Positions 14,414-41,304 of a stretch of DNA of 44,988 bases are shown here, piece by piece. The notes under the pieces were generated by a model. It saw only the letters and a list, made by a program, of their open reading frames with translations, was not told where the DNA came from and searched no databases. The stretch's first letter is position 1; every line of letters begins with the position of its first letter. Where the stretch lies: sequence record SRR20825006_2606. One strand, given 5' to 3'. The position numbers and the translations under genes were made by a program.

Positions 14414-14740
14414 TAGATGATATAAAAGATTGTCAGTATAGTTGAAAAAGCGCTTCCAAATATAAGAATTAAGTATAATAATTATACTAAAATGTTGAAA
14501 TATATAATATAATTATTGAGATGTTGAGGAAAACTTAAATAAAATCCTTTAAAACGATATTTAAAATAATATGGAAAAGAGAAAATCGATAAAATTACAA
14601 TATGGGACGTCTTTTGTTTACAACAGAATTATCCATATTGAGTTGAATATTCTTATAGACAATGAGCATAACTAATAATTTAACTTATTAGTTATTTGAT
14701 ATTAATGATCAAATATGACATTATATACTGATGGAATAGA

Positions 14741-14769
14741 ATTATAAGTGCATTTTAGACACTTATAAT
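14741..14769. promoter_or_regulatory. Perfect inverted repeat upstream of the HNH gene (operator or 5' leader hairpin)
   Basis: ATTATAAGTG-N9-CACTTATAAT, 60 nt before ATG 14830. Confidence 0.35.
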
Positions 14770-14829
14770 GATGGCATTCTTCAAATCGGAGTCGAGACAA
14801 GAGCTTTTAAATCTTTAAATGAATGCTTT

Positions 14830-15330
14830 ATGACCGCAAACGTATTGGTGCTTAATCAAGATTATCAACCGTTGAGTGTTTGCTCCATTCAACGATCTAT
14901 GAAACTGCTTTTTTTAGAAAAAGCAGAGTTACTTCACGATGACCCTAAAAGAGTTTTACGAACAACAAGAAGAGATTATTCCTATCCCTCAGTAATAAGG
15001 CTGAGAAACTATATTCGCGTTCCATATACAAGGTTAGTTTTGTCTCGGAGAAATGTAATGCGAAGAGATGACTTTACGTGCCAGTATTGCAATAAAAAAA
15101 CAAAACTTACTATAGATCACGTAATCCCAAAAAGTAGAGGTGGCTCTGATACTTGGGAAAACCTTACTACAGCTTGTGAGAGATGTAATGTTAAAAAAGG
15201 GAGCTTTACTCCGAAAGAAGCAAATATGGTTTTAAAAACCAAACCCTATCGTCCCATCGCATTTACTTTTTTTCGTGATATAAACGGTGGGGTTCAGGAG
15301 CCCTGGAAACCGTATTTGTACATGACTTAA
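14830..15330 (+). CDS. HNH endonuclease (small McrA-like family)
   Basis: 166 aa; N-terminal VLVLNQDYQPLS; RDDFTCQYC...LTIDHVIPKSRGG..WENLTTACERCNVKKG Zn/HNH motif. Confidence 0.9.
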   Translation: MTANVLVLNQDYQPLSVCSIQRSMKLLFLEKAELLHDDPKRVLRTTRRDYSYPSVIRLRNYIRVPYTRLVLSRRNVMRRDDFTCQYCNKKTKLTIDHVIPKSRGGSDTWENLTTACERCNVKKGSFTPKEANMVLKTKPYRPIAFTFFRDINGGVQEPWKPYLYMT

Positions 15331-17617: not shown

Positions 17618-17642
17618 ATGTCTGTGAATTAAAGCCTGGGCG

Positions 17643-17719
17643 AAAAAAGAACCGCCCATTCCTGGTACGGTTCCTTCTCTATCGCTGAAAATTTATCTCT
17701 GATATTAATGCTAGCAATA
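17643..17719 (-). ncRNA. Candidate ECF-sigma-dependent small RNA (sRNA-1)
   Basis: Own promoter CAATCC-N16-CGTA (17750-17725) and own terminator GAACCG-TACCA-GGAA-TGGG-CGGTTC-T6 (17673-17643); no usable ORF; insulated by terminators on both sides. The 5' end is estimated. Confidence 0.55.
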
Positions 17720-17724
17720 TAGAT

Positions 17725-17750
17725 TACGTACTAATGCATTAACTGGATTG
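17725..17750 (-). promoter_or_regulatory. Putative ECF (SigK-like) promoter of sRNA-1
   Basis: CAATCCagttaatgcattagtaCGTA; same elements and spacing as the motif upstream of the ECF sigma gene. Confidence 0.6.
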
Positions 17751-17760
17751 GATTTTGAGC

Positions 17761-17790
17761 AAAAAAAAGCTCTCCCAAAATGGGAGAGCT
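17761..17790 (-). terminator. Intrinsic terminator of the sigma/anti-sigma operon
   Basis: Minus strand AGCTCTCCCATTTTGGGAGAGC followed by T8. Confidence 0.88.
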
Positions 17791-17816
17791 AATAATAATA
17801 GAAGAAGTGGTATAAA

Positions 17817-18611
17817 TTACATGCTTCCCAAGAGATACATATCTCCAGTAGGCTGTGGTGATCCACCTTCAGGTTCTAAAGTAATCGCAAAAGCCCCATC
17901 CGAAGCCGACTGCTGAAACTGCTCAATCTTAAAGAAATTATCTTTTTCTGAATTATTAACAGCAAATACACCCGCGCTAATAGGCTGGTTATTTACCACA
18001 AACCAAAGTTGATAATCTTTACTAAGCGGTACATTGGGTAGATTAGCAACTTGGAGTAAAGCTTGCCCATTATCTTTATCCCAAACCACTTTTCCGTAAC
18101 CAGTTGGGTTAACATCTAAACCATCCATCAATATTAAGTCTACATCTCTAGCTTCTAGAATCGCCAGTAATTCCGATTTTTGATCTATTTCAGTTTTTAA
18201 CTCACGAATGGTCACGTCTCGTTGAGCTAGTAAATCAGATGAATTAGTAAGATCGTTTTTTAAGTTTTGGTTAAAGAAAAACAAACCTAACGAAAGCATC
18301 ATAAATACTACAGAAGCTGCGGCAGCAAATCTAAATCGGGGCAAGTAATGTACATTTGCTCCATGTTTAGAATTAACGGATGCCCAAGCCATCTGTAGAA
18401 GTTGTTCCTTAATATGCTCTGAAGGTTGTTGCTGAGTGGCTAAAAGTGCCATTTCTGACGCAATTATTTTCATGTCTTCAAAAAGCTGATTTTGTTCTTC
18501 GCTAGCAGATTCTAGAAGCGATAAAAACTCACTTTTTTCATCATTGGTTAATGCGTTAAGTACATAACCTGTACAAAGTTCTTCGAATTGATTATTTATT
18601 GAATTACTCAT
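17817..18611 (-). CDS. Anti-sigma factor, RskA (anti-sigma-K) family
   Basis: N-terminal GYVLNALTNDE, one TM helix, coiled coil, C-terminal KDYQLW...FAITLEPEGGSPQPTG RskA signature; 4-nt overlap with the sigma gene. Confidence 0.9.
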   Translation of the reverse strand: MSNSINNQFEELCTGYVLNALTNDEKSEFLSLLESASEEQNQLFEDMKIIASEMALLATQQQPSEHIKEQLLQMAWASVNSKHGANVHYLPRFRFAAAASVVFMMLSLGLFFFNQNLKNDLTNSSDLLAQRDVTIRELKTEIDQKSELLAILEARDVDLILMDGLDVNPTGYGKVVWDKDNGQALLQVANLPNVPLSKDYQLWFVVNNQPISAGVFAVNNSEKDNFFKIEQFQQSASDGAFAITLEPEGGSPQPTGDMYLLGSM

Positions 18612-19225
18612 AGTGCTAACTCTCCTCCAAGTAGCTCTCTTAGTTTTAACATCCCATCACGCATTCGCGTTTTAACTGTGCCCAAAGGAAGATCTAGTTT
18701 GTCTGAAATTTCAGATTGACTAAGCCCATCAAAATAAGCCACTTGAATAACGGTGCGTTGTTTTTCAGAAAGCTTCTGAAGCGCAGTGTAAAGTTGAGAA
18801 GCTCTTTCAGAAAGAATAGTACTTTCTAAAGGGCTGTTTTCGTCTGAATATAGAGGTTGAAATACATCATCATCATTCAAACTAGTTGACTGTCTTTTTT
18901 GCTCTTTGTAGACTTTCGATCGCAATCGGTCTATACCTTTGTTTCGAGTTAACGATACAATCCATGTATATGCAGATCCTCTTTCTGTATCAAATTGGTC
19001 TGCTTTTTGCCATATAGTTGTAAAAACCTCTTGCAATAAGTCTTCTGCTTCTTCTTTCTTTTTTAAAACGGAAAGTAGAAGGCCAAATAATATTTTGTGA
19101 TACTTGTCGTACAAGAGAGAGAGAGCAACAGGATCTTGTGAAGCTATGCGTTTCATCAAATCCCTATCCTTCTCATTATCTTGTGTTAAAAGCCTACCAA
19201 TGGCAGAAAGAATAAAAAATAGCAT
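18608..19225 (-). CDS. ECF RNA polymerase sigma factor (SigK-like)
   Basis: EAEDLLQEVF (region 2), WQKADQFDTERGS, AYFDGLSQSEISDKLDLPLGTVKTRMR (region 4); coupled to an RskA gene. Confidence 0.92.
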   Translation of the reverse strand: MLFFILSAIGRLLTQDNEKDRDLMKRIASQDPVALSLLYDKYHKILFGLLLSVLKKKEEAEDLLQEVFTTIWQKADQFDTERGSAYTWIVSLTRNKGIDRLRSKVYKEQKRQSTSLNDDDVFQPLYSDENSPLESTILSERASQLYTALQKLSEKQRTVIQVAYFDGLSQSEISDKLDLPLGTVKTRMRDGMLKLRELLGGELAL

Positions 19226-19248
19226 ATGTGTTTTGTTTCAGTAGTTAA

Positions 19249-19274
19249 TACGTAAGCAATGCAATCATGGATTG
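19249..19274 (-). promoter_or_regulatory. Putative autoregulatory ECF promoter
   Basis: CAATCCatgattgcattgcttaCGTA, 23 nt upstream of the sigma ATG; resembles ATCC-type -35 / CGTA -10 ECF promoters. Confidence 0.65.
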
Positions 19275-19313
19275 AACTTAGCTCGTTACTGTAAATTCAA
19301 ATAACGGTATTAT

Positions 19314-21338
19314 TTATAAAAAGACATCTAAGTTATTAACATCTGTAACAGGTTCTGCACATGAATAATTAGTGCAGATATAAATACTTGTTCGCCCGTC
19401 TTTCGGTAACAGATCTATAACGTAAGAAGAAAGAGCTCTTATTTTGTCTTCTTTTTGAGGCCTAAAAACAAGTACCTTTTGAGGATTAAACGCTGTTCTT
19501 ATAACCGAAATGAAAGGTTTAGTGTCTGTGTTTCCTTCAGAAATCACAATCTCTTTTGGATTATGATGAACAAACTGAATTGCAGAAATACCGAGTGTAA
19601 TACTTGAGCCCGCCCTAATAAGTTCACTCGAAAAGAATTTTCCTATAGCATCTGCCTTTTGCTCAAAATCGGTGATACCAGTAAGTTTACTTAAACGGAG
19701 TAAATTAAGCATCCCAACGGAATTTGCAGAAGGAATAGCTCCGTCGTAAATATGTTTCTGAAGACCTAAAGGCTGATCAGTAGAATCTTTAGTTTGGAAG
19801 AATCCACCAAGCTTAGAATCCCAGCATTTTTCAATCATTGCTTTATTGAATGAAAGCGCAGACTCCAAATAATCGGAATTAAAAGTGGCTTCATAAAGCT
19901 CAATGGCAGCCCAAACTAAAAATGCATAATCATCAGCGAACGCATCAATTTCAGCTTCACCTTGTTTATAACGGTGTTTTAAATTGCCATCAATAATCAA
20001 ATTCTTCTCTAAGAATTGGAATGATTTTTCAGCAGCATCCAAATAAGTTGAATTCTGAAGTACAGCTCCAGCTTTTGCAAGAGCAGCAATCATCAACGCA
20101 TTCCAGTCTGTGAGGACTTTATCATCTAAGAGAGGTTTAGCTCGATTGTTCCGCACCTCAAATAAAGAAGCACGAATGTCTTTGAATCGTAATTCTTCAG
20201 TACTGGAGAGAGCTTTCTTTAAATGAGGAATGTTATTTCCCGTAAGCTCCTTTGTGGCCTCATCTTCAAAATTACCCTCAGACCTAAATCGATATATATC
20301 CTTAAACCAAACAGCATCTTCAGTAGATAAAATGCTATCGATTTCCTGTTCCGACCAAATATAGAATTTCCCTTCTTCGCCTTCTGTATCGGCATCTTCG
20401 GCAGAATAGAAAGCTCCCGAAGGGTCGGTTAATTCTCTAGATACATACTCAGAAATCTCTTCAATCGTCTGTTTGAAGAGTGGATTTTGACAGACCTGAT
20501 AACCTTCGGTATAAGCCATCATTAGTAAAGCTTGATCGTACAACATTTTCTCAAAATGAGGGAGAAGCCATTGAGCATCCGTTGAATAACGATGAAAGCC
20601 AAAACCGACATGATCCCAAATACCACCTAAACGCATTGAGGTTAAGGTTGCTTCTACAGCATCTTTAAAGCGATTTTCTTTAGTATGATTCCATTGTCGT
20701 AGCAGAAACATCAAATTATGTGGACTTGGGAATTTTGGAGCCGAACCAAATCCTCCATTTTTATCATCATATTGCTGGGTTAATTGAGCCGCCGCAAAAT
20801 CAATGGCTTCAGTACCAGGAAATAAACCAGATTCAAACTCTTGTGATCTATCGAAACCACCTTGTATACTTTCTACGGCTTTCTGAACTCTTTCAGGTTC
20901 GTGATCCCACATTCCTTTTACACCAGGAATTAATTGCTTCAGACCAATTCTATTAAACCGAGCTTCTTTCGGTAAATATGTAGCAGCAAAAAAAGGTTTT
21001 TTGTCAGGGGTCATGATAATTGTTAATGGCCATCCGCCATGCCCATTTAGCATTTGGCAAACCATCATATAAGTACTATCAATCTCAGGGCGCTCTTCTC
21101 TATCTACCTTAATGTTAATGAATGCATCATTCAGTTTCGATGCGATTTCCTCATCCTCGAAACTCTCATGAGCCATCACGTGGCACCAATGGCATGTGGC
21201 ATAACCAATGGATAAGAAAATTGGTTTATTCTCAGATTTAGCTTTTTCAAAAGCTAAATCTCCCCAAGGATACCAATCAACGGGATTGTCTTTATGTTGA
21301 AGTAAATACGGGCTTTTTTCGTGTTCTAAACGGTTCAA
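19314..21338 (-). CDS. Thioredoxin domain-containing protein, YyaL/SPATA20 (DUF255) family
   Basis: [60 protein letters not shown] motifs; TTG start. Confidence 0.92.
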
Positions 21339-21386
21339 AAGAATGGTTTTTAAAATGAAATATGGTTAGATCTGACTTCTAGAAAA

Positions 21387-21875
21387 TTAACTATCAAGAT
21401 CTTTTTTGAATCTCTGGCTATAATCAACAATAAATCGCTCGTAAGGAGCATCCATCAGTTTAGAAGAAATCAAAAAATCTGCGGAAGAACGATTACATGC
21501 TAATGGGATATTATAAACCACACTAATTCTCAGTAATGCTTTAACGTCAACATCATGAGGTTGAGCTTGTAATGGATCCCAAAAGAATATCATTATATCG
21601 ATTTGGTTATCAATAATTGCGGAGCCAATTTGTAAATCGCCCCCTAGTGGCCCACTTTTGAATGTGTAAACTGGGAGTTTGAGTTTTTCTGCAGCTAGTG
21701 AGCCAGTAGTTCCAGTTCCAAATAAGTTGTGTTGGGCTAAGGAGTCTCTATTATAAAACGCCCAATCTAGCAAATCCATTTTTCGATGGTCATGAGCAAT
21801 AAGAGCAATGTTTTTTTTAGGTTTCATTGCTATGATGGAGTTAGCAATGGAAGGGTGGTGTATTTTCTTTGCCAT
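21387..21875 (-). CDS. mgsA: Methylglyoxal synthase
   Basis: IALIAHD, GTGTTG, SGPLGGDLQIG, FFWDPLQAQPHDVDVKALLR motifs; alternative start at 21827. Confidence 0.95.
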   Translation of the reverse strand: MAKKIHHPSIANSIIAMKPKKNIALIAHDHRKMDLLDWAFYNRDSLAQHNLFGTGTTGSLAAEKLKLPVYTFKSGPLGGDLQIGSAIIDNQIDIMIFFWDPLQAQPHDVDVKALLRISVVYNIPLACNRSSADFLISSKLMDAPYERFIVDYSQRFKKDLDS

Positions 21876-21948
21876 AATTTTTTATTGGCAATATACATTA
21901 ATCAAAGCATCATCGCTTTGTTATAGCCGAGGATATTGAAGGGATAAA

Positions 21949-23796
21949 TTAAATTACGAGGCGTAACTGAGAGCGTTCCATCCGGATTTGTTTCACTCTA
22001 AATGATTCATTATCGAATCCTTTGAGCTCTTTTTGGCTATCTTTTATAAAAAGAGTGTCTCTGTTTCTTTCTAAATACAGTTTTACGTCTTCATTATTAT
22101 AAAAGGCCTCTGAAACAACAATCTCTTTCTCTTTGGCTACATCAACTAAGCGAGAAGCAATATTTACTGAGGTTCCAAAATAATCGATTCTATCGTTTAA
22201 ATTTACCGTGGTGCAATCACCTAAATGAATGCCAGCTTTAAGTTTGAAAGCATCGCCCATTCCCGTTGAGCTTGAAAAAATTTGCTGAATTCGTTCAACA
22301 GCTTTTAGTGCGGAAACCGGTTCTCTAAAAACAGCCATTACCGAATCACCGATAGTTTTAACAATTCCTCCACGTTCTTCGGCCACAATTTGCTGTATAA
22401 TTTTGAAATGGCTCATCAGTTGACCAATAGCAAACTCATCACCTTCTTGAACATATAAATCGGTAGAATTCATTAAATCGGTAAACAAGATGCTTACATT
22501 AGTAGCTAATATTTTTTCGCCATCATTTAGGATTTCTTTCGCAAATAATGTTCTAAAATCATGAGAGGAAGTTACTTCAGATGCGTAGATAGCCTCCTGT
22601 TTCCAGTTCTCTTTTTCCAAATAGCACACAACCTTTTGAGAGGAATGGTTGATAATTGTGAGGTTTGGTTTTGTAGAAATAACAGCCTCTTGTCCTGAAA
22701 AGTCGTCGTCTTTGATATAAAGTGTAATAGTTTCCGGGCCGTCTTCACGAACATGAAGTTTCAAAACACCGTCATGTTGGTACGTTTTAAAAATATATGT
22801 GCCTTCTTCGAGCCGGACATTTAGATACTGTTTTTCACCAATTTTTAAAAAATGTTGTGTCGCTCTGTAAGGAGTATTTTGTGGCCCACCAAAGCAATAT
22901 TTTTTAGCTGAAAGCTTTCTTATTAGTGGGTTTGGAGTAAATACTAAGTGTATATTTTTATTAAAATCAATGTTGTAGCTGATATTGCATTCCTCACAAT
23001 GCAAATTATCGTGAGTATCAGTCATTTTTCTAAAACTATGAGTAAGTGCTTTACAGTTCGGGCACGATATATCCCATTGGAAATCAAGCAAGTCTAACTT
23101 CGCAGCGTGAAGAAAAACATTGAGCACTGAATATTTTTTTTCCCCCCAATACTCTGCTAATTTATAGGGATGAATTGCACGTAACTCAGCATCATCGGCT
23201 TTTCTTAGGTAATCAAAAAGATGGTTAATAATTCTTTGTCGACGAGTGTTTGCAAGGAGTTTTTTTCGAATCAGTTTCATTCTTTTTCCTGCACCTCGAA
23301 CGAGGTTTTTTTCCTGTGCTAACTCATACGTTAGTAAATTATCAACAGCGCAGGCATCAATCCTATGTAAGAACTTCGTAAACCTTTGGCGAAGAACTCT
23401 TGTAATGTATAAACTAAGAGGAAGTGAGAATAGCTTATTGATGGAAAGAATCCATATGCGTAGATGAACAGAAGTGCCTGCAGAATTCTTACTTAATGTA
23501 AATAATAGGCGAACATTCTTAAGAAGTCCGATTTTATAATGCCTTGTACAGCCAAAACGGTAAGGCTTCTCCCACATATAAGGTTCCTCTTGCCACACAA
23601 GGTGTGAGCTTAACCGAGTTGAAGCTAGCTCTAAAAAACCTTTGGAAGAGCTTCTAGAAAAAGGAGTTTTCTGGATTGGGTATAACCTAATATTCCTGAA
23701 AATACTATTTGTATCAGAAATTAGTGGCCATAGCTGTTCAGGGGTGGCCTTAAGTTGAAACTTCCAACTAAAAAAATGTTTATGTCTGTCCTTCAT
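21949..23796 (-). CDS. Class III adenylate/guanylate cyclase with N-terminal SRPBCC-like and DUF5939-like Zn-ribbon region
   Basis: C-terminal LFTDLMNST, VKTIGDSVM, KAGIHLG, IDYFGTSVNIASRL; N-terminal ATPEQLWPLISDTN; CPNC...HCEEC; ATG 23796 preferred. Confidence 0.85.
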   Translation of the reverse strand: MKDRHKHFFSWKFQLKATPEQLWPLISDTNSIFRNIRLYPIQKTPFSRSSSKGFLELASTRLSSHLVWQEEPYMWEKPYRFGCTRHYKIGLLKNVRLLFTLSKNSAGTSVHLRIWILSINKLFSLPLSLYITRVLRQRFTKFLHRIDACAVDNLLTYELAQEKNLVRGAGKRMKLIRKKLLANTRRQRIINHLFDYLRKADDAELRAIHPYKLAEYWGEKKYSVLNVFLHAAKLDLLDFQWDISCPNCKALTHSFRKMTDTHDNLHCEECNISYNIDFNKNIHLVFTPNPLIRKLSAKKYCFGGPQNTPYRATQHFLKIGEKQYLNVRLEEGTYIFKTYQHDGVLKLHVREDGPETITLYIKDDDFSGQEAVISTKPNLTIINHSSQKVVCYLEKENWKQEAIYASEVTSSHDFRTLFAKEILNDGEKILATNVSILFTDLMNSTDLYVQEGDEFAIGQLMSHFKIIQQIVAEERGGIVKTIGDSVMAVFREPVSALKAVERIQQIFSSSTGMGDAFKLKAGIHLGDCTTVNLNDRIDYFGTSVNIASRLVDVAKEKEIVVSEAFYNNEDVKLYLERNRDTLFIKDSQKELKGFDNESFRVKQIRMERSQLRLVI

Positions 23797-23920
23797 ATTT
23801 AAAAGAAAACCTGGCAATGAGGTATAACTCGATAATTGTTTGCTGAACTCGTATCTTTAGTCACCATTTTGAAGAGGATATCTTAAAATGGTTGTTACAA
23901 AATTTTAATAATACATAACA

Positions 23921-24352
23921 ATGGCAATAGAAAGAACTTTGACTATTCTGAAACCTGATTGTGTTCGTAAAGAACTAATTGGGGAAGTAACTCAGCGCAT
24001 CCAAGAAGCTGGATTTACTATTCTTGCAATGAAATTGACAAGACTAACAATGGAAACTGCGGGCGGCTTTTATGCGGTTCATAAAGAACGTCCTTTTTAT
24101 GGCGAGCTATGTGAATTCATGAGTAGCGGAGCGTGTGTACCTATGATTCTTGAAAAAGAAAACGCAGTAGCAGACTTTAGAAAACTTATTGGTGCTACAA
24201 ATCCAGCTGAAGCAGAAGAAGGCACAATTCGTGCTGCATTTGCTGATAGTTTAGGTGAAAACATCATTCACGGTTCTGACTCTGTTGAGAATGGATTGCT
24301 TGAAGGAGCGTATTTCTTTACTGAATCTGAAGTAGTAGCTAATAGAGCTTAA
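23921..24352 (+). CDS. ndk: Nucleoside diphosphate kinase
   Basis: [38 protein letters not shown] motifs. Confidence 0.97.
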
Positions 24353-24376
24353 AAAATACTTCTAATTCCGTTTTTT

Positions 24377-24408
24377 AAAAGCAGCCTTTTTAAAAGGTTG
24401 CTTTTTTT
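24377..24408 (+). terminator. Intrinsic terminator after ndk
   Basis: AAAAGCAGCCTTTTTAAAAGGTTGC followed by T7. Confidence 0.8.
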
Positions 24409-24440
24409 ATTTGTGCCTCAGTTAATGATTCATAAATTCC

Positions 24441-25676
24441 ATGATGAAACTAACACAATATATTCTCCCGATTCTATACCTAGCGGTAGCATTAAACTGC
24501 TCCCCTAAAGAATTTCCCCAACCTGCTGTTGTAAAAACCGGCGCAGAAGTTCTTATCCAAGAACACCTACCAGAGCTTAAAGGTAAGAAAGTGGGGCTTT
24601 TTATGAATCCAACAGCTCGGATAGGAGATGTACATGTCTTGGATACTTTGCTGACCCTTGGGGTTGAAGTAACAGCTCTATTTGCACCAGAACATGGATT
24701 TAGAGGTGATGCTGGCGCTGGAGAAAGTATAAAGTCTGGAATTGATAGCGCATCAGGATTACCAGTCCACTCTCTGTATGCTGGAGGTAAAATTCTAAAG
24801 CCTTCTCCTGAAGTTTTAAATACACTAGATATTATTCTTTTTGATATGCAGGATGTTGGCGCTCGATTCTACACGTATAATGTTTCTATGAAATTACTGT
24901 TAGAAGCTGTTGCAGAAACAGGTACTGAAGTTTGGATACTCGATCGACCAAATCCTGCAGGAGGCGAGTATGTTGCCGGCTGGATATTAGAAGATGAATA
25001 CCGCTCTTTTGTTGGGGATTACCCAATACCAATCGCACACGGTTTAACTCTTGGAGAGCTTGCATTGATGGCCGTTGGAGAAAGTTGGCTAGAAGCAACA
25101 AAGCCCGTAAATGTTAAGATAATCCAAATGGAAGGCTGGAAGCGATCTTACAAATGGCCAGATACTGGATTAAATTGGTTCCCACCATCACCTAATCTTC
25201 CAGCTTTTGAAAATGCATACGCATATTTAGGAACCTGTTTTATTGAAGGAACAAGCTTATCTGAGGGTAGAGGTACAGATAACCCATTTTTAATTTTAGG
25301 CGCACCAAATACGAAGGTTCAATTAAAAGAACTGGCTGAGATTGGCGCAAATTATGGTGTTCAACTTGATACAGTTTCGTTTACTCCAAGATCAATTCCA
25401 GGCAAATCTTTAAATCCCAAACATAAAGATTCAAAAAGCTTTGGCGTTAATATTGTAAGTCTGTCCACAAAAGAGAAGAGTCTTGAAGACCCTGTGAAAT
25501 TTGGAATTGAGTTGATGTATATACTAATGGATGCTACCCCCAAAGCCGAGTACAAAAGCTTTATTAAGAAACTATCTGGGACAGATAAAATTCTTAATAA
25601 GCAAGAACTGGATTCGTGGGGTTCGAACTTTGAAAATTATGTAACTAAAAGAAAAGCTTACTTAATTTACGATTGA
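24441..25676 (+). CDS. namZ: Exo-beta-N-acetylmuramidase NamZ (DUF1343/YbbC family), probable lipoprotein
   Basis: LFAPEHGFRG, FDMQDVGARFYTY, LDRPNP, HGLTLGELA, PPSPNLP, SEGRGT motifs; Cys after the signal peptide. Confidence 0.85.
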   Translation: MMKLTQYILPILYLAVALNCSPKEFPQPAVVKTGAEVLIQEHLPELKGKKVGLFMNPTARIGDVHVLDTLLTLGVEVTALFAPEHGFRGDAGAGESIKSGIDSASGLPVHSLYAGGKILKPSPEVLNTLDIILFDMQDVGARFYTYNVSMKLLLEAVAETGTEVWILDRPNPAGGEYVAGWILEDEYRSFVGDYPIPIAHGLTLGELALMAVGESWLEATKPVNVKIIQMEGWKRSYKWPDTGLNWFPPSPNLPAFENAYAYLGTCFIEGTSLSEGRGTDNPFLILGAPNTKVQLKELAEIGANYGVQLDTVSFTPRSIPGKSLNPKHKDSKSFGVNIVSLSTKEKSLEDPVKFGIELMYILMDATPKAEYKSFIKKLSGTDKILNKQELDSWGSNFENYVTKRKAYLIYD

Positions 25677-26410
25677 CGTCTTCGCCATTCATAGCAGACT
25701 AGAGCAGCGCTTACTGATGCGTTTAAGGATTCAACGTCGTTCGTCATTGGAAGCGTAACGGAGTCGGAACATTTTTTAAGTATATTCTTTTCGATTCCTC
25801 GTCCTTCATTACCAACTAAAAACGCAACAGGCTTATTGAAGTCCTTCTCCCAAACTGTTTTGGTAGCTTCTCCGGAGAGTGCAACAACTTCAAATCCAGC
25901 GGCAGTTAAATCTTTTATGCCTTGGTTAGAATCATGTACTCTAATAATCGGAATTCTTCCAGCAGTACCTGCCGAAGTTTTGAATACGGTTGCATTAATC
26001 GGAGCTTGCCCTTGCCCTGAAACTAAAACTGCTGAAATACCAGAAGCTGCTGCTGTTCTAAGGATAGCTCCAAAGTTGTGAGGGTCTTCAATTCCATCAA
26101 GAAGCAAGACCGCAGGATTGTTACTTTGGTCTAGAGTTTCTACCCAATCAAAGAAGTTTGCATACTTGACGATACTCATCAATGCAACAAAACCTTGATC
26201 GTTTACTCTTCCAACAAGGTTATCAATTTTAACTTGCGGAACCTTAGAAACAGGAATTAGGTTCTCAGAAATGAGATCTGTGATTTCAGATATGGTAGAT
26301 GGTTGAATAGAATTTTTAATAAAAATCTTTTCAATTTCATCAGGACGTTGTTGTAGGGCCTCTAAAATAGGCTTACGACCATAAATGAAAATATTTTTAA
26401 TATTTTGCAT
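25667..26410 (-). CDS. rlmB: 23S rRNA (guanosine-2251-2'-O)-methyltransferase (SpoU family)
   Basis: YGRKPILEAL, DGIEDPHNFGAILRTA, KTSAG, VGNEGRGI, ESLNASVS motifs. Confidence 0.9.
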   Translation of the reverse strand: MQNIKNIFIYGRKPILEALQQRPDEIEKIFIKNSIQPSTISEITDLISENLIPVSKVPQVKIDNLVGRVNDQGFVALMSIVKYANFFDWVETLDQSNNPAVLLLDGIEDPHNFGAILRTAAASGISAVLVSGQGQAPINATVFKTSAGTAGRIPIIRVHDSNQGIKDLTAAGFEVVALSGEATKTVWEKDFNKPVAFLVGNEGRGIEKNILKKCSDSVTLPMTNDVESLNASVSAALVCYEWRRRQS

Positions 26411-26484
26411 AATTATTTTATTGTTATGACACTTTTACTATAATGTAGTAATAAAAGTCGTGTGTGAGTCTAAATAATAAGGAC

Positions 26485-26835
26485 ATGTTTGAGCAATCTA
26501 AAGAGAAATATCCGTTAACTTCGGAAAGTTTATCGCTAAAGAATAAATCTAAGACAGGTAAGGTCAACGAATCTGTTTTTTTAAGTCGTATCCAGTCAGT
26601 AAATATACTGCATTTTATATCTGCCACCGCGCAGCTTTTTTTAGGAGTTTGCGTGGTAGCGCTTTCATTGGCTGAATTAATTCACCCAACTTGGCTAGCA
26701 ACTGTAATGACAGTACTAGGTAGCCTTACTAGCGTTATAGGTTTGTATTTTATGTATAACATTTTTTCAAGTATTGGAACCTTCGATTCTTTGCTTAATA
26801 AAGCAATAAAAAGAGTGATTACTTTCCAGAATTAA
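26485..26835 (+). CDS. Hypothetical membrane protein (2 TM helices)
   Basis: ATG 26485 preceded by TAAGGA; two hydrophobic segments; no family recognised. Confidence 0.6.
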   Translation: MFEQSKEKYPLTSESLSLKNKSKTGKVNESVFLSRIQSVNILHFISATAQLFLGVCVVALSLAELIHPTWLATVMTVLGSLTSVIGLYFMYNIFSSIGTFDSLLNKAIKRVITFQN

Positions 26836-26924
26836 CTATTGGCTTGTGTTTTGATTCTAAAGGATTGAAGCTAATTCGATACATTGAGATTTTTGTATCG
26901 TCAATATAAGTATGGCTTTAAGTC

Positions 26925-27827
26925 ATGAAGTATAGAATATTAGCTTTACAGTTAGTAATGTTAGGCATCAATACATTTGTGCTTTATGCCCAAGGTAGCA
27001 TAATGAAATACGAGCATAAGTCACTCATAAAAAATACTATGGATACTAATGATAATGGGTTTATTGTAATCGCTCATCGTGGTGCACGTGCTTATTACCC
27101 TGAGAACACAATGGCTGCATTTAGGGCGGCGATTGATTTCGATGCTGAAATGTTGGAGTTAGATGTGCAGCTAAGCAAAGACAATATTCCTGTAATTTTT
27201 CATGATACAAAGCTAGATAAAAAAACAAATGGCTCCGGTTTCGTTTCCGATTATACATTGGAACAACTGCAAGAATTAGACGCAGGATCATGGTTTGACG
27301 AGAAGTTTAAAGGAGAAAAAATTCCAACTCTTGTGGAGCTTTTGGAATATGCTAGAGGTAGAATTTCAGTAAATATTGAGATCAAAACGGAAGCTGTGAA
27401 AGATGTTGCTCTCTATAATTCTGAAAATAGTGTGGAGAAGCAAGTAGTAGCACTTATAAAAGCTCTGGGTATGAAAAGCAGTGTGATGGTATCAAGCTTT
27501 GATTACAGAGCCGTTAAAAGAATTAAAGAGCTTGATCCAGAAATTTATACAGCACTTTTGTACGAAAAGGAGCAGTCAAATGGATTAAACCCTAAAGAGC
27601 TTGTAGACTTGTATCATGTTGATGCATTCAACTGTAGTGGTAGAGAGTTAAACCGAAAGTGGCTCGATATTTTAAATCACAATGAAATTCCTTTTTTTGT
27701 GTACACCATTAACGAAGCTACACAAATGAAAAAGGTAATAGAAGCAGGTGCTAAAGGTATATTTTCTGATAAACCAGACTTACTCAAGCAAGTTTCTGAT
27801 GAGATGTTCCCCTCCAAAACAGAATAA
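26925..27827 (+). CDS. Glycerophosphodiester phosphodiesterase
   Basis: IAHRGARAYYPENTMAAF, ELDVQLSKD, FHD, NIEIK, SSFD, YTIN, IFSDKP motifs; N-terminal signal peptide. Confidence 0.92.
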   Translation: MKYRILALQLVMLGINTFVLYAQGSIMKYEHKSLIKNTMDTNDNGFIVIAHRGARAYYPENTMAAFRAAIDFDAEMLELDVQLSKDNIPVIFHDTKLDKKTNGSGFVSDYTLEQLQELDAGSWFDEKFKGEKIPTLVELLEYARGRISVNIEIKTEAVKDVALYNSENSVEKQVVALIKALGMKSSVMVSSFDYRAVKRIKELDPEIYTALLYEKEQSNGLNPKELVDLYHVDAFNCSGRELNRKWLDILNHNEIPFFVYTINEATQMKKVIEAGAKGIFSDKPDLLKQVSDEMFPSKTE

Positions 27828-27867
27828 AATCCATTTTGTTAAATCATTTATTGAACGGGGACTGTGA

Positions 27868-29559
<1,692 letters not shown>

Positions 29560-29592
29560 TTTTAATACTCTCGTTTCTGTATAATAATCTTT

Positions 29593-29629
29593 AAAAAGGA
29601 ATGTAGTTCACCACTACATTCCTTTTTTT
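29593..29629 (+). terminator. Intrinsic terminator after pyrG
   Basis: AAAAAGGAATGTAGT-N5-ACTACATTCC followed by T7. Confidence 0.88.
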
Positions 29630-29743
29630 GTTAGATAAACAATTCAAGTTTGTGTTATATCTGCCCATGTAAAAGGTTGGTATAAATTTTATCAATCCTA
29701 AAATGATTGTTTATATTGAACTGATCTTAAATTAAATATACTT

Positions 29744-31405
29744 ATGAAGTACTTTTCACAACTATCAATATTATTACTACTAGTAATTACAGCGTGCTCC
29801 AAACAGAGTGATACACAGGTGATTACAAATGTTAACGGCTATACCATTACTGGAGATTCTGTTTTGGAGTTTTCGACTATCGCGATGGAGAATGGGAAAA
29901 TTGTTGGTATTGGTGGTGATGAAATTCGGCAGAAATTCTCAGAAGCAACAATTATTGATGGAGAATCAAAAACGATGTTACCTGGCTTAACAGATGCTCA
30001 TGGCCATGTTATGGGGTTAGGATTTCAGGAACTACAAGTGAATGTGGCGGGGATTAAGTCTCTAGATGAAACACTTAAGAAAATAAAAGAATATGCAGAT
30101 GAGAATCCTGATTTGGAATGGATACAAGGTCGTGGCTGGAACCAAACATTGTGGAAAGAAAATGAATTTCCTACAGCCGCAGATTTAGATAAAATAATCT
30201 CAGATCGACCTGTTTGGTTGAGTAGAGTAGATGGGCATGCAGGTTGGGGAAACTCAGTAGCACTCCAAAAAGCCGGTATCAGTAAGGATACACCTGACTC
30301 ACAAGGCGGAAAAATCATTCGAGACTCAAAAGGAAACGCAACTGGCGTTTTTATTGATGCTGCACAGTGGAATATTGACTCTATTGTACCTGAAGCAACA
30401 GAAGTGGAAAGAGAAATGGCGTTTAAAAAAGCGCTTGAGCAAATGAAAAGGATGGGCTTAACATCAGTACATGATGCTGGAGTGAGTGCAAGTGATTGGA
30501 ATTTGTATAAAAAAGTAGCTGATGAGGATAATCTTACTACAAGAATTTATGCTATGATTGGTGGTGCCGGAGAAGAGTTCGATAAATTATCGGAAAAAGG
30601 ACCAGTTGATTCTTACTCGGACGATATGCTTGCTTTGCGAAGTGTGAAGCTCTACTCAGATGGAGCGCTTGGTAGTAGAGGCGCTGCTATGATTGATTCT
30701 TATTCTGACGATCCGGGAAATAATGGGTTACTTTTTTACGACCAAGAACAGATGAACGAAATGGTTCTTAAAGTTACTGAAAAAGGTTTTCAAGCAAATG
30801 TACACGCCATTGGTGATAGAGGAAACAGAGAAGTTCTTAATGCGTTTGAATATTCAAAAGATAAGCTGGGAGAACAAGGACTTAGAAATCGAGTAGAGCA
30901 TGCACAAATTGTATCATTAGATGATATTCCTAGATTTAAAGAGTTGAATATCATCGCATCTATGCAACCAACCCATGCAACAAGTGACAAAAATATGGCT
31001 GAGGATAGAGTTGGTTCCGAGCGAATAAAAGGAAGTTATGCTTGGAAGACATTCCTAGAGCAGGGAACTATTGTTGCTGCCGGTTCTGATTTCCCCGTAG
31101 AGCATTCTAATCCATTCTTTGGATTGTATTCAGCTGTTACACGTATGGATCATGAAGGAGCGCCAAAAGGGGGCTGGTACTCAAATGAAGCTTTAACGCG
31201 AGAAGAGGCATTGAAAGCTTTTACTATAGATGCCGCTTATGCTGGACATCAAGAGGAGTCACTTGGTAGTTTAGAGGTTGGGAAATGGGCAGATTTCATT
31301 CTCATAGATAAAGATTATTTCAATGTATCGGCAAGCGAAATATGGAATATTAAAGTGCTTCAAACTTGGGTGGCAGGCAAAAAAGTATACACTGCTGAAA
31401 TGTAG
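29744..31405 (+). CDS. Amidohydrolase 3 family (YtcJ-like) lipoprotein
   Basis: Lipobox ITAC; PGLTDAHGH, KLYSDGALGSRGA, HAIGDRG, RVEHAQ, MQPTH, GSDFPVE, GKWADF motifs. Confidence 0.9.
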   Translation: MKYFSQLSILLLLVITACSKQSDTQVITNVNGYTITGDSVLEFSTIAMENGKIVGIGGDEIRQKFSEATIIDGESKTMLPGLTDAHGHVMGLGFQELQVNVAGIKSLDETLKKIKEYADENPDLEWIQGRGWNQTLWKENEFPTAADLDKIISDRPVWLSRVDGHAGWGNSVALQKAGISKDTPDSQGGKIIRDSKGNATGVFIDAAQWNIDSIVPEATEVEREMAFKKALEQMKRMGLTSVHDAGVSASDWNLYKKVADEDNLTTRIYAMIGGAGEEFDKLSEKGPVDSYSDDMLALRSVKLYSDGALGSRGAAMIDSYSDDPGNNGLLFYDQEQMNEMVLKVTEKGFQANVHAIGDRGNREVLNAFEYSKDKLGEQGLRNRVEHAQIVSLDDIPRFKELNIIASMQPTHATSDKNMAEDRVGSERIKGSYAWKTFLEQGTIVAAGSDFPVEHSNPFFGLYSAVTRMDHEGAPKGGWYSNEALTREEALKAFTIDAAYAGHQEESLGSLEVGKWADFILIDKDYFNVSASEIWNIKVLQTWVAGKKVYTAEM

Positions 31406-31432
31406 AAATCATTGTCAGAAAAAATTCTTCAT

Positions 31433-31460
31433 AAAGCCTCTTTTTAAAGAGGCTTTTTTT
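31433..31460 (+). terminator. Intrinsic terminator after the amidohydrolase
   Basis: AAAGCCTCTTTTTAAAGAGGC followed by T7. Confidence 0.8.
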
Positions 31461-31510
31461 GGAGCTGATTAAAATATACCATAGATTATATGTATAAAAC
31501 ATGTGTATAT

Positions 31511-32572
31511 ATGAATGAATTACAAAACCCACTTCGAGGAAGAGGCGCCTCAGATAATCCAGTCAATCGTTTTGAAGGCAATTATGTGGATTACGAACTT
31601 GATGAAGAAACGGGTGAAAAGCCATCTCCTAAAACCCAACTATTCTCTGACGATACCAAACAAGTTATATCATGGAATAAGAGCCCTGATATTCCATTCG
31701 AAGCTGGCTTAAATCCGTATAGAGGATGTGAACATGGTTGTATTTATTGTTATGCACGTCCTTATCATGAGTATTTAGGGTTCTCTGCTGGGGTAGATTT
31801 TGAAAGTAAGATTGTAGTTAAATATAACGCGGCAGAGTTACTCAGAAAGCAATTCATTTCTCCAAAATGGAAACCACAAGTGGTGGTGATGAGTGGCGTA
31901 ACCGATTGCTATCAGCCTATAGAGAGAAAGCTAGAAATAACTCGAAACTGTTTAAAAGTCTTTGCCGAGTTTAGAAATCCAGTAGGTATTATCACAAAGA
32001 ATCATCTCGTTACGAGAGATATAGATTACCTTAAAGAGCTTAGTGATCAGAACTGTGTTAGCGTAACTATTTCTGTTACTTCTTTAGATAATAAGCTAAC
32101 GGAAATTATGGAGCCGAGAACCTCGCGTGCAAAAAGAAGGCTCGAAGCAATTGAGAAGCTAGCGAAAGCTAACATCCCTGTAAGAGTTAATGTTGCGCCT
32201 ATTATACCCGGTTTAACCGATCATGAGCTTCCAAGTATATTACAATCAGCGTATGATGCCGGCGCAACACAAGCAAGCTACATTATTGTAAGATTACCTT
32301 ATAAGGTAAAAGACTTGTTTTGTGATTGGCTCGAGCAACACTACCCTGATAGAAAAGAAAAAGTAGAAAATAGATTACTAGATATGCGGGGGGGCAAGCT
32401 TTATAATTCTGATTGGAGCAACCGGATGAAAGGTCAGGGTGTTTTTGCTAAACAAATTAAAGATGTATTTGATGTACAAATAAAGCGACTAGGAATGAAT
32501 TCGGTTCATCATCCCTTAACTACTGACAATTTCATTAAAAAATCAGGAGACCAGTTACAATTGTTTACATAA
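31511..32572 (+). CDS. Radical SAM protein, PA0069/Rv2578c (spore-photoproduct-lyase-like) family
   Basis: RGRGA..NP..RF, NPYRGCEHGCIYCYARP (CxxxCxxC), TDCYQPIER, APIIPGLTDHE, C-terminal QLQLF; start at 31511 preferred over 31490. Confidence 0.9.
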   Translation: MNELQNPLRGRGASDNPVNRFEGNYVDYELDEETGEKPSPKTQLFSDDTKQVISWNKSPDIPFEAGLNPYRGCEHGCIYCYARPYHEYLGFSAGVDFESKIVVKYNAAELLRKQFISPKWKPQVVVMSGVTDCYQPIERKLEITRNCLKVFAEFRNPVGIITKNHLVTRDIDYLKELSDQNCVSVTISVTSLDNKLTEIMEPRTSRAKRRLEAIEKLAKANIPVRVNVAPIIPGLTDHELPSILQSAYDAGATQASYIIVRLPYKVKDLFCDWLEQHYPDRKEKVENRLLDMRGGKLYNSDWSNRMKGQGVFAKQIKDVFDVQIKRLGMNSVHHPLTTDNFIKKSGDQLQLFT

Positions 32573-32618
32573 AGTGTGGTAAATGAATTATTAAATGACA
32601 TTCGTTTACAAACTTGTG

Positions 32619-32644
32619 GGAAACTTTTTCCAAGTTCGTTCGTC
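32619..32644 (+). promoter_or_regulatory. Putative ECF sigma promoter of sRNA-2
   Basis: GGAAAC-tttttccaagttcgtt(N16)-CGTC, close to the SigW/SigM-type consensus TGAAAC-N16-CGT(A/C). Confidence 0.55.
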
Positions 32645-32649
32645 TTTAA

Positions 32650-32731
32650 TGATGTAGCCTCCCGGTACCCAATGCTAGAGAGTCATATTAGAGATAATAA
32701 TATATTTATTTTTGGGTATCGGGTTTTTTTT
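32650..32731 (+). ncRNA. Candidate ECF-dependent small RNA (sRNA-2)
   Basis: Follows an ECF-like promoter; 12-bp stem CCCGGTACCCAA (32661-32672) / TTGGGTATCGGG (32712-32723) enclosing a 39-nt loop, then T8; shares a motif with sRNA-1. The 5' end is estimated. Confidence 0.5.
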
Positions 32732-32851
32732 GTCCGGTTGTCAAGCTTTTCTATTACTTGCCGTTCTTGAAAGAAGTCTCAATTATTGTCCCGCTCATTC
32801 AATATCTTTAGGCAAAATTCATTATTAATTTATAAATCTGACATATTTATA

Positions 32852-37929: not shown

Positions 37930-37969
37930 GCAAACTCTCAAATTCTCATTGTTATTGTGACATAATATT

Positions 37970-38003
37970 AGCTCTGTAGATTGATCTCTGCAGGGCTTTT
38001 TTT
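37970..38003 (+). terminator. Intrinsic terminator after fadE
   Basis: AGCTCTGTAGA...TCTGCAGGGC followed by T7 (G-U pairs in stem). Confidence 0.75.
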
Positions 38004-38081
38004 ATGATTGTAATACTTTCTACTACTAAGAGTAATAAAGAGATGAGTAAAAAGGTGTATATGCTGTAATACTATGAAATA

Positions 38082-38096
38082 TAGATTATTATTCTT
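38082..38096. promoter_or_regulatory. Possible Lrp-family binding site
   Basis: TAGATTATTATTCTT matches 13 of 15 positions of the E. coli Lrp consensus YAGHAWATTWTDCTR; lies upstream of an Lrp gene; AT-rich context weakens it. Confidence 0.3.
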
Positions 38097-38189
38097 TATC
38101 TAATATGATATTAGAATATCAGCAAATAATTTACTTTTATTCTAGTGATATGTATTGTGTAAATAATAGCCAAAAATGAGATTGTTGCT

Positions 38190-41211: not shown

Positions 41212-41237
41212 GAATACCGTTTTGATATATTTAAAAT

Positions 41238-41287
41238 AAAAAAGGAAATGAGATTTGAGTTAACATAAAAGTCAGCTCAAACCTCAT
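41238..41287 (-). terminator. Hairpin/terminator between lemA and the TPM genes
   Basis: Minus strand ATGAGGTTTGAGCTGAC-N6-GTTAACTCAAATCTCAT followed by TTCCTTTTTT. Confidence 0.55.
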
Positions 41288-41304
41288 ATCACGAATAGGA
41301 TTGC

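Follow-up and report, generated by a model that had tools for sequence, protein, structure and literature searches.

Two candidate small RNAs with different ECF-type promoters in Balneolaceae and the short sequence word they share

The closest described counterparts of the elements analyzed here are the small RNAs (sRNAs) MicA, RybB and MicL of enterobacteria, which reportedly (PMC4102768) combine a promoter of the extracytoplasmic function (ECF) sigma factor sigma-E with an intrinsic terminator and supply the repressing arm of a sigma factor that only activates; MicL is described there as being transcribed from within the cutC coding sequence. A comparable arrangement occurs twice in the stretch of DNA SRR20825006_2606 (44,988 nucleotides (nt), called the window below, with positions counted from its first letter), where two candidate sRNAs, sRNA-1 and sRNA-2, lie 15 kb apart, each with an ECF-type promoter and an intrinsic terminator and each a possible repressing arm of its sigma factor. 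A preliminary description of the window had taken a motif common to both as the mark of a sibling sRNA family. Unlike MicA, RybB and MicL, the present RNAs belong to Balneolaceae, a lineage in which Hfq (PF17209) was found in none of three genomes that are each 99% complete, they have no relation to the enterobacterial RNAs in sequence or in Rfam, and their status as sRNAs is predicted from sequence. The sigma factors also differ from sigma-E, that of sRNA-1 being SigK/RskA-like and the candidate for sRNA-2 being another ECF protein.

Four further systems offer partial comparisons. MicV and VrrA of Vibrio cholerae share a seed and, according to PMC6694218, depend on the same sigma factor and have a seed conserved across species, whereas the two RNAs of the window have different promoters and share a word restricted to one clade (4/37 and 1/13 members of the respective families). 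The sibling sRNAs NgncR_162/163 of Neisseria, as reported in PMC9973317, resemble the present pair in that more than one small RNA is encoded per genome and common targets are proposed, but the covariance models of the two families described here do not detect each other. The likeness to CsrB and RsmZ is limited to a repeated purine-rich motif, with two AGAGA per RNA in place of many GGA loops. The gene pair adjoining sRNA-1 is comparable with the SigK-RskA modules of groups ECF18 and ECF19 in that an ECF sigma factor gene adjoins one whose anti-sigma product carries an RskA C-terminal domain and in that SigK is the best named NCBIfam match of the sigma factor. According to PMC7509140, the binding sites of SigK are conserved and the Mycobacterium tuberculosis gene is autoregulated; the sigma factor of the window differs in scoring below the SigK cut-off. 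Within the open-access literature and preprints, no small RNA or CHRD-domain protein was found as a member of a SigK-RskA regulon and no published sRNA work on Balneola was found.

Conserved RNA units and their promoters

Comparison with related genomes resolves two conserved single-copy units. Each combines a conserved promoter of ECF type with a terminator helix that covaries (compensatory changes in 7 of 13 consensus pairs for sRNA-1 and 5 of 11 for sRNA-2) and with an unpaired stretch that is itself conserved. It is likely that these units are two independent and unrelated small non-coding RNA genes, each having its own type of ECF-sigma promoter and its own intrinsic terminator. On reading the sequence, no open reading frame (ORF) of at least 20 amino acids that fits either unit is seen, and Rfam gives no match at gathering score in the window, with only sub-threshold terminator-like matches at both loci when permissive thresholds are used. 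The earlier view of both loci as small units with ECF-type promoters and intrinsic terminators, served by different sigma factors, is supported by the conservation of the promoters.

The candidate sRNA-1 transcript occupies positions 17643-17722 on the minus strand (about 80 nt, 5' end inferred), with covariance model R2 matching 17643-17707 at 66.4 bits (E 3e-13) and a predicted fold of -23.2 kcal/mol (z -4.24). The alignment holds 13 members of the genus, which share the same layout downstream of an anti-sigma factor gene, namely a terminator, CAATC[CT]-N16-CGTA and an RNA of about 60-80 nt. Invariant among the 13 are the promoter words, the terminator and a core T.AG.GATAGAG..A.GGA, with GATAGAG present in every member; in six members from a second genus the CAATCC promoter is kept and the core reads TGATAGAGATAAG. 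In the window the conserved core (17673-17686, minus strand) is AGCGATAGAGAAGG, corresponding to a family consensus AG[CT]GATAGAGATAAGG, and reads AGCGAUAGAGAAGG as RNA from 17686 to 17673; the core, also given as AGCGAUAGAG, has AUCAGAGAUAA upstream of it. The terminator (17643-17674, minus strand) is formed by the covarying hairpin and a run of six T residues. Model R2 matches 14 of the 151 genomes of the family in single copy each, 8/14 in the genus and 6/11 in the second genus. The 5' segment of the RNA is variable in both length and sequence, and the version shared by the window and G001, the nearest genome used for comparison (99.76% identity to the window across 3780 nt), is the longest.

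The sRNA-1 gene is part of a cassette on the minus strand. An ECF sigma factor gene (18608-19225) encodes a SigK-like protein of 205 amino acids (Pfam Sigma70_r2/r4/ECF), whose best NCBIfam matches, PRK12519 and the SigK subfamily, both fall below cut-off (155.5 bits for SigK, with a cut-off of 226). The anti-sigma factor gene (17817-18611) encodes 264 amino acids with an RskA_C domain (Pfam PF10099, 85.1 bits with a cut-off of 29.4; NCBIfam NF052375, 102.4 bits with a cut-off of 100). The presumed autoregulated promoter of this operon is found by pattern match as CAATCC-N16-CGTA at 19249-19274, its intrinsic terminator (a 10-bp stem followed by T7) is placed at 17768-17790, and a second copy of the same CAATCC-N16-CGTA motif at 17725-17750 forms the sRNA-1 promoter, which is kept before the small RNA in 13 genomes. 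Orthologous anti-sigma genes give matches in 127/283 genomes of the order and 16/23 of the genus, and in all of the 30 loci compared the motif is placed on the coding strand, 658-700 nt ahead of the point where the anti-sigma gene starts, and the other strand has no copy there. The CAATCC-type motif recurs after the anti-sigma gene in 29 of the 30 loci, and a third copy is present in 10, where a terminator is followed in turn by a motif, the small RNA, another motif and a gene; the third promoter word, located after the small RNA, is CAATCTGAACG-N-CGTA. In G010, the sole genome checked (L052 2495-3790), the product of the gene behind this third motif is a secreted protein that contains three CHRD domains (Pfam CHRD). 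No CHRD-type gene directly follows the small RNA in the window, G001, G017 or G006. Scanning G001 for CAATCY-N15-17-CGTA yields 37 sites against 19 for the control, so the pattern is too loose for defining a regulon.

The block carrying sRNA-1 and the anti-sigma and sigma genes (17621-19337) is present in the window and G001 and missing from G009, G002 and G021, the closest genomes to the window after G001. In these three the place of the block (from 17568 in G021) is taken by 65-133 nt between flanks that are 83-92% identical, which is a clean presence/absence polymorphism, and the cassette is dispensable. All three retain sRNA-2 with its motif.

The candidate sRNA-2 transcript (32649-32731, plus strand, about 83 nt, 5' end inferred) is matched by covariance model R1 at 79.6 bits (E 4e-14), with a predicted fold of -22.7 kcal/mol (z -3.21). 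At the 5' end it has a short GUAGC tail, followed by an 11-bp stem whose loop is 35-65 nt long and partly conserved in sequence; a T-run closes the unit. The 5' arm of the long stem is at 32661-32672 and the 3' arm with a run of eight T residues, which constitutes the terminator, at 32712-32731, the consensus pairing being drawn from an alignment of 24 sequences. Model R1 has a single match in each of 47 of the 151 genomes of the family (Balneolaceae), including 14/14, 11/11 and 11/11 in three genera, and a strict pattern for the element retrieves 31 public records titled Balneola, Balneolaceae, Balneolales or, more broadly, Rhodothermia, Bacteroidota or unclassified bacterium. Outside the window clade the consensus of the loop runs GAGAGTAGCTTTTTAAACATAG and then ATGACCAC or TAGCC (as RNA, GAGAGUAGCUUUUUAAACAUAG and then AUGACCAC or UAGCC), and the window with its close clade alone reads UAGAGAGUCAUAUUAGAGAUAAUAA.

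Directly upstream of sRNA-2 on the plus strand is a radical SAM gene of the PA0069 family (31490-32572; NCBIfam NF033668, 476.7 bits with a cut-off of 360), and the element follows this gene in all 22 genomes of the genus that have it; in G020 it stands in a different gene context. sRNA-2 probably shares its terminator with the radical SAM gene, much as MicL reportedly shares that of its host gene. The downstream neighbor in the window is an AhpC/TSA-type redoxin gene, which has a conserved promoter-like region of its own past the hairpin. In most genomes of the genus the gene after the hairpin is convergent, and the element is therefore not a leader.

The sRNA-2 promoter, GAAAC-N16-CGTCT at 32620-32645 (plus strand), is kept without mismatch by 31 of the 37 members of the family when a spacer of 16 (26 members) or 17 (5 members) is admitted, with four variants. 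Across three genera GAAAC and CGTCT are constant and the spacer sequence is freely variable, with a conserved GTAGC 5-9 nt downstream; constant words at fixed spacing around a free spacer are a promoter signature, presumably of the AAC/CGT ECF type. In G001 the pattern GAAAC-N15-18-CGTCT has 13 sites, fewer than the 40 of its reversed control, and no site resembles a further small RNA or stands before a sigma gene. Among 18 genes of the sigma-70 family in G001, start-codon calls being unreliable for at least 3 of these, one conserved ECF gene has AAAAC-N17-CGTCTTA upstream. It encodes 189 amino acids (L243 1330-2683, contig 3 of G001; orthologues L258-L262) and is 82-89% identical across three genera, and AAAAC-N17-CGTCT precedes it in five of six genomes from the three genera, G007 reading CGTCC. 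The sRNA-2 promoter would thus match the presumed auto-promoter of a second conserved ECF sigma factor encoded elsewhere in the genome, which makes this protein the best candidate for the sigma factor of sRNA-2, although the motif likeness is suggestive only.

Three smaller observations concern these units. After the candidate sRNA-2 sigma gene there is an ORF of 226 amino acids with no Pfam match, possibly its anti-sigma factor. GTAGC (32655-32659 in the window) occurs at least twice in 25 of the 37 sRNA-2 members, with one copy at the 5' end and one or two in the loop, and could be a protein-binding word or chance; within the genus, most sRNA-1 members have TGTAGCTT in their terminator. The loop GAGAG of sRNA-2, judged by eye, may pair with a downstream CUUUUC (UCUC in one genus) and so extend the stem.

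The shared motif

The sRNA-1 motif (17716-17693, minus strand) reads TGCTAGCATTAATATCAGAGATAA and lies inside the lineage-specific variable 5' segment, and the clade-specific sRNA-2 loop motif (32673-32697, plus strand) reads TGCTAGAGAGTCATATTAGAGATAA. Both strings and their positions proved exact when the window was re-read. Each RNA does carry AGAGA twice, a feature of just 0.87% of 80-nt windows across the stretch, and the promoters and terminators of the two RNAs are indeed unrelated to each other. The two motifs begin with TGCTAG and end in the degenerate 13-mer ATATYAGAGATAA, with a middle that differs in both sequence and length (CATTA versus AGAGTC).

The best local alignment of the two units of about 95 nt is this 25-nt motif block, with a score of 23 and an identity of about 19/25. 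A score of 23 is equalled or beaten in 20 of 2000 dinucleotide shuffles. When real intergenic segments from the window (G+C 37.7%) are paired at matched size, 68 of 3000 pairs attain it, and so do 46 of 702 oriented pairings of complete intergenic regions; the latter comprise 27 regions defined from 39 of the 50 ORFs of the window after 11 nested ORFs were dropped. A 13-mer matching at 12/13 or better is present in 47 of 1500 size-matched real intergenic pairs. For a single pre-chosen pair the match is only marginally significant (p about 0.01-0.03), and significance is lost when more than one candidate pair is taken into account. The top intergenic local alignment scores in the window, 32 in each case, exceed that of the sRNA pair and join 26411-26463 with 37930-38189 and 14414-14829 with 41212-41304.

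Further copies of the motif are lacking. The 13-mer ATATYAGAGATAA occurs twice in the window and twice in the 3.7 Mb of G001, where the reversed control occurs once, and each covariance model finds one match per genome. Nor is the motif conserved in orthologous loci, being absent from 12/13 sRNA-1 members and 33/37 sRNA-2 members. In sRNA-1, ATATCAGAGATAA and TGCTAG are each found in one of 13 members, and the motif region stands opposite gaps or unlike sequence in all 12 orthologues; the closest of these, G017, has TAACAGAAATTTA where the window has TATCAGAGATAAA and AACAGAAATTT opposite ATCAGAGATAAATTT, and G013 has CTAGCTATTACATAT opposite GCTAGCATTAATAT. In sRNA-2, the 13-mer ATATTAGAGATAA is found in 4/37 members and TGCTAG in 3/37, with TCTTAG in its place in the G002 loop, and AATGCTAGAGAGT of the window corresponds to AACTATAGAGAGT in G011. 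The two halves of the match descend from unlike, family-specific ancestors, and the RNAs are therefore neither paralogues nor demonstrably co-functional.

True sibling sRNAs are paralogues that can be aligned over most of their length. For the two RNAs of the window no homology was found past the short word, the best alignment covering 25 nt. With filters off, R1 gives 13 matches in the window up to E 10, none of them at sRNA-1, and R2 gives 23, among which the sRNA-2 loop ranks 15th (9.0 bits, E 5.9). The sRNA-1 and sRNA-2 families are not detectably related. Taken together, the frequency of comparable matches, the lack of further copies and the lack of conservation in orthologues, which are the three outcomes that the preliminary description had named as refuting, contradict the proposal of a sibling family, and the likeness of TGCTAG and ATATYAGAGATAA is, judged from the aligned sequences, a coincidence of lineage-specific sequence.

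Alternative explanations

Several observations weigh against independence and coincidence. As a single pre-chosen pair the match is somewhat unusual (1% of shuffles, 2.3% of size-matched pairs), and the doubled AGAGA, itself infrequent, is found in both RNAs. A 25-nt loop segment of sRNA-2 from TAGAGAG to ATAATAA is invariant in the window and its four closest relatives, with both flanks varying. The 9-mer TAGAGATAA in the window-clade loop is the sRNA-1 consensus core as carried by 8 of 13 members, and the window-clade loops come top of all 37 when compared with that core (score 18; mononucleotide-shuffle p 0.000-0.010). In addition, the 5' ends, sigma dependence and any targets of both RNAs are predicted, and the sigma factor of sRNA-2 is a candidate by motif likeness.

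The invariant loop segment and the 9-mer speak for a functional convergence of seeds, in which selection in the window lineage would have equipped each of the two RNAs with the seed of the sRNA-1 family, (U/C)AGAGAUAA. The mRNAs repressed by two ECF regulons would then overlap, as with the MicV and VrrA RNAs of Vibrio, for which PMC6694218 gives a precedent of a shared seed in otherwise unrelated sigma-E sRNAs. The loop of G019 also has AGCGATA and comes next after the window clade (score 14, p 0.024), the rest being at background, and sRNA-1 of the window combines a degraded ancestral core, GATAGAG--AAGG, with a second AGAGATAA upstream. The signal is post hoc, however, and approaches 0.05 when about 10 independent lineages and any shared word are allowed, and the other lineages that lack the cassette, G005, G011 and G020, have background scores of 10, 14 and 8. 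Putative targets do not point to convergence either: TTATCTCT has four sites in the window, two of them within the two RNAs, and at least four arise in 31 of 100 shuffles; a search of five genomes for perfect targets of the sRNA-1 core as TCTCTATCGC gives counts equal to the reversed control, with one of the matches in each genome being the sRNA-1 locus itself and no shared or conserved target standing out. Convergence of seeds is accordingly regarded as unlikely, and doubtful too is its fuller version, in which the sRNA-2 loop was remodeled to display UAGAGAUAA, the sRNA-1 family seed, while sRNA-1 gained a second copy, so that two envelope/redox stress signals converge. If it were true, redundancy may have let the sister species delete the sigma/anti-sigma/sRNA-1 cassette.

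A rather improbable explanation is that one or both elements are not free-standing regulatory RNAs, the sRNA-2 hairpin being the terminator of the radical SAM gene, with some other role for the motif upstream of it, and sRNA-1 a non-functional remnant beside a cassette in the course of being lost. From the stop codon of the radical SAM gene to the hairpin there is no other terminator-like site, but the sRNA-2 loop contains conserved sequence far beyond what a terminator needs, the invariant GAAAC and CGTCT at fixed spacing around a free spacer in three genera form a promoter pattern, and the convergent gene after the hairpin in most members of the genus leaves no room for a leader. For sRNA-1, the cassette is missing from three close relatives and the window is without the CHRD gene, which in 10 relatives comes after the RNA; against its being a remnant, the core is kept in two genera and the RNA stands in tandem with a separately promoted CHRD gene.

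In a further reading, ectopic recombination or gene conversion within the window lineage carried a piece of about 25 nt from one locus to the other, giving a recent and local homology. This is very improbable in spite of the lineage specificity of both matching segments and the short distance of 15 kb within a syntenic block kept across genera, given that each half is derivable from its own orthologues by small changes (G013 and G017 for sRNA-1, G011 for sRNA-2), that CATTA and AGAGTC in the middle are unlike and unequal in length, and that identity is only about 19/25.

Proposed regulation and minor features

With two independent RNA genes as the preferred reading, sRNA-1 would belong to the regulon controlled by the neighboring SigK/RskA-like sigma/anti-sigma pair. 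Once released by the anti-sigma factor, the sigma factor would direct transcription of its own operon, of sRNA-1 and, in relatives, of the secreted CHRD-domain protein; these three are placed in one regulon because all have CAATCC/T-N16-CGTA promoters. The functional part of sRNA-1 is most likely the single-stranded core AG[CU]GAUAGAG(AU)AAGG just 5' of the terminator, which may serve as a base-pairing seed on mRNAs. More generally, each RNA would be made on release of its sigma factor and act by base pairing through its conserved segment, the putative seeds being the sRNA-1 core and the sRNA-2 loop consensus GAGAGTAGCTTTTTAAACATAG. Of the two AGAGA in each RNA, one is specific to the family and one to the lineage. 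A 24-column core profile searched with nhmmer detects nothing above noise except the sRNA-1 loci. A common output of the two RNAs, as had been suggested, finds no support.

The titration of an RNA-binding protein by analogy with CsrB/RsmZ lacks a partner, as CsrA (PF02599) was found in none of three Balneola genomes, each 99% complete, the control genomes giving matches. Small RRM_1 proteins are present in all three genomes. With Hfq and CsrA not found and RRM proteins present, any chaperone would therefore be of the kind represented by Bacteroides RbpB (reported in PMC11697453).

With the sibling proposal failing, present evidence gives no ground for recording a new RNA family as a link between two stress pathways. 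The two RNAs are credible new candidates for ECF-dependent sRNAs and would represent two conserved families in Balneolaceae that are absent from Rfam, each with a recognizable ECF-type promoter and a candidate cognate sigma factor. For sRNA-1 the arrangement suggests a compact regulon under one promoter word, comprising the sigma factor, the anti-sigma factor, the small RNA and a CHRD-domain protein. If confirmed, the rule that an ECF sigma factor is complemented by an sRNA as repressing arm would extend beyond Proteobacteria.

No contig of sequencing runs X1-X3 covers either small RNA, which is uninformative on expression. A 272-nt contig of run X1 is identical to part of the ECF sigma gene (18846-19117), and other short identical contigs fall in coding regions. 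Run X1 is labeled RNA by guess, and loose contig ends in X1 and X2 are cDNA-adapter-like; the X1 contigs are at most a weak hint of mRNAs of the organism in that run.

Two features lie outside the RNA units. A free-standing HNH endonuclease gene of 166 amino acids is located at 14830-15330 within a long intergenic stretch. Upstream of the redoxin gene, a block conserved in the genus (32783-32812) reads TTGTC.C..TCATT.AATATCTTTG and resembles the housekeeping promoter of the Bacteroidota type (TTG ... TAnnTTTG).

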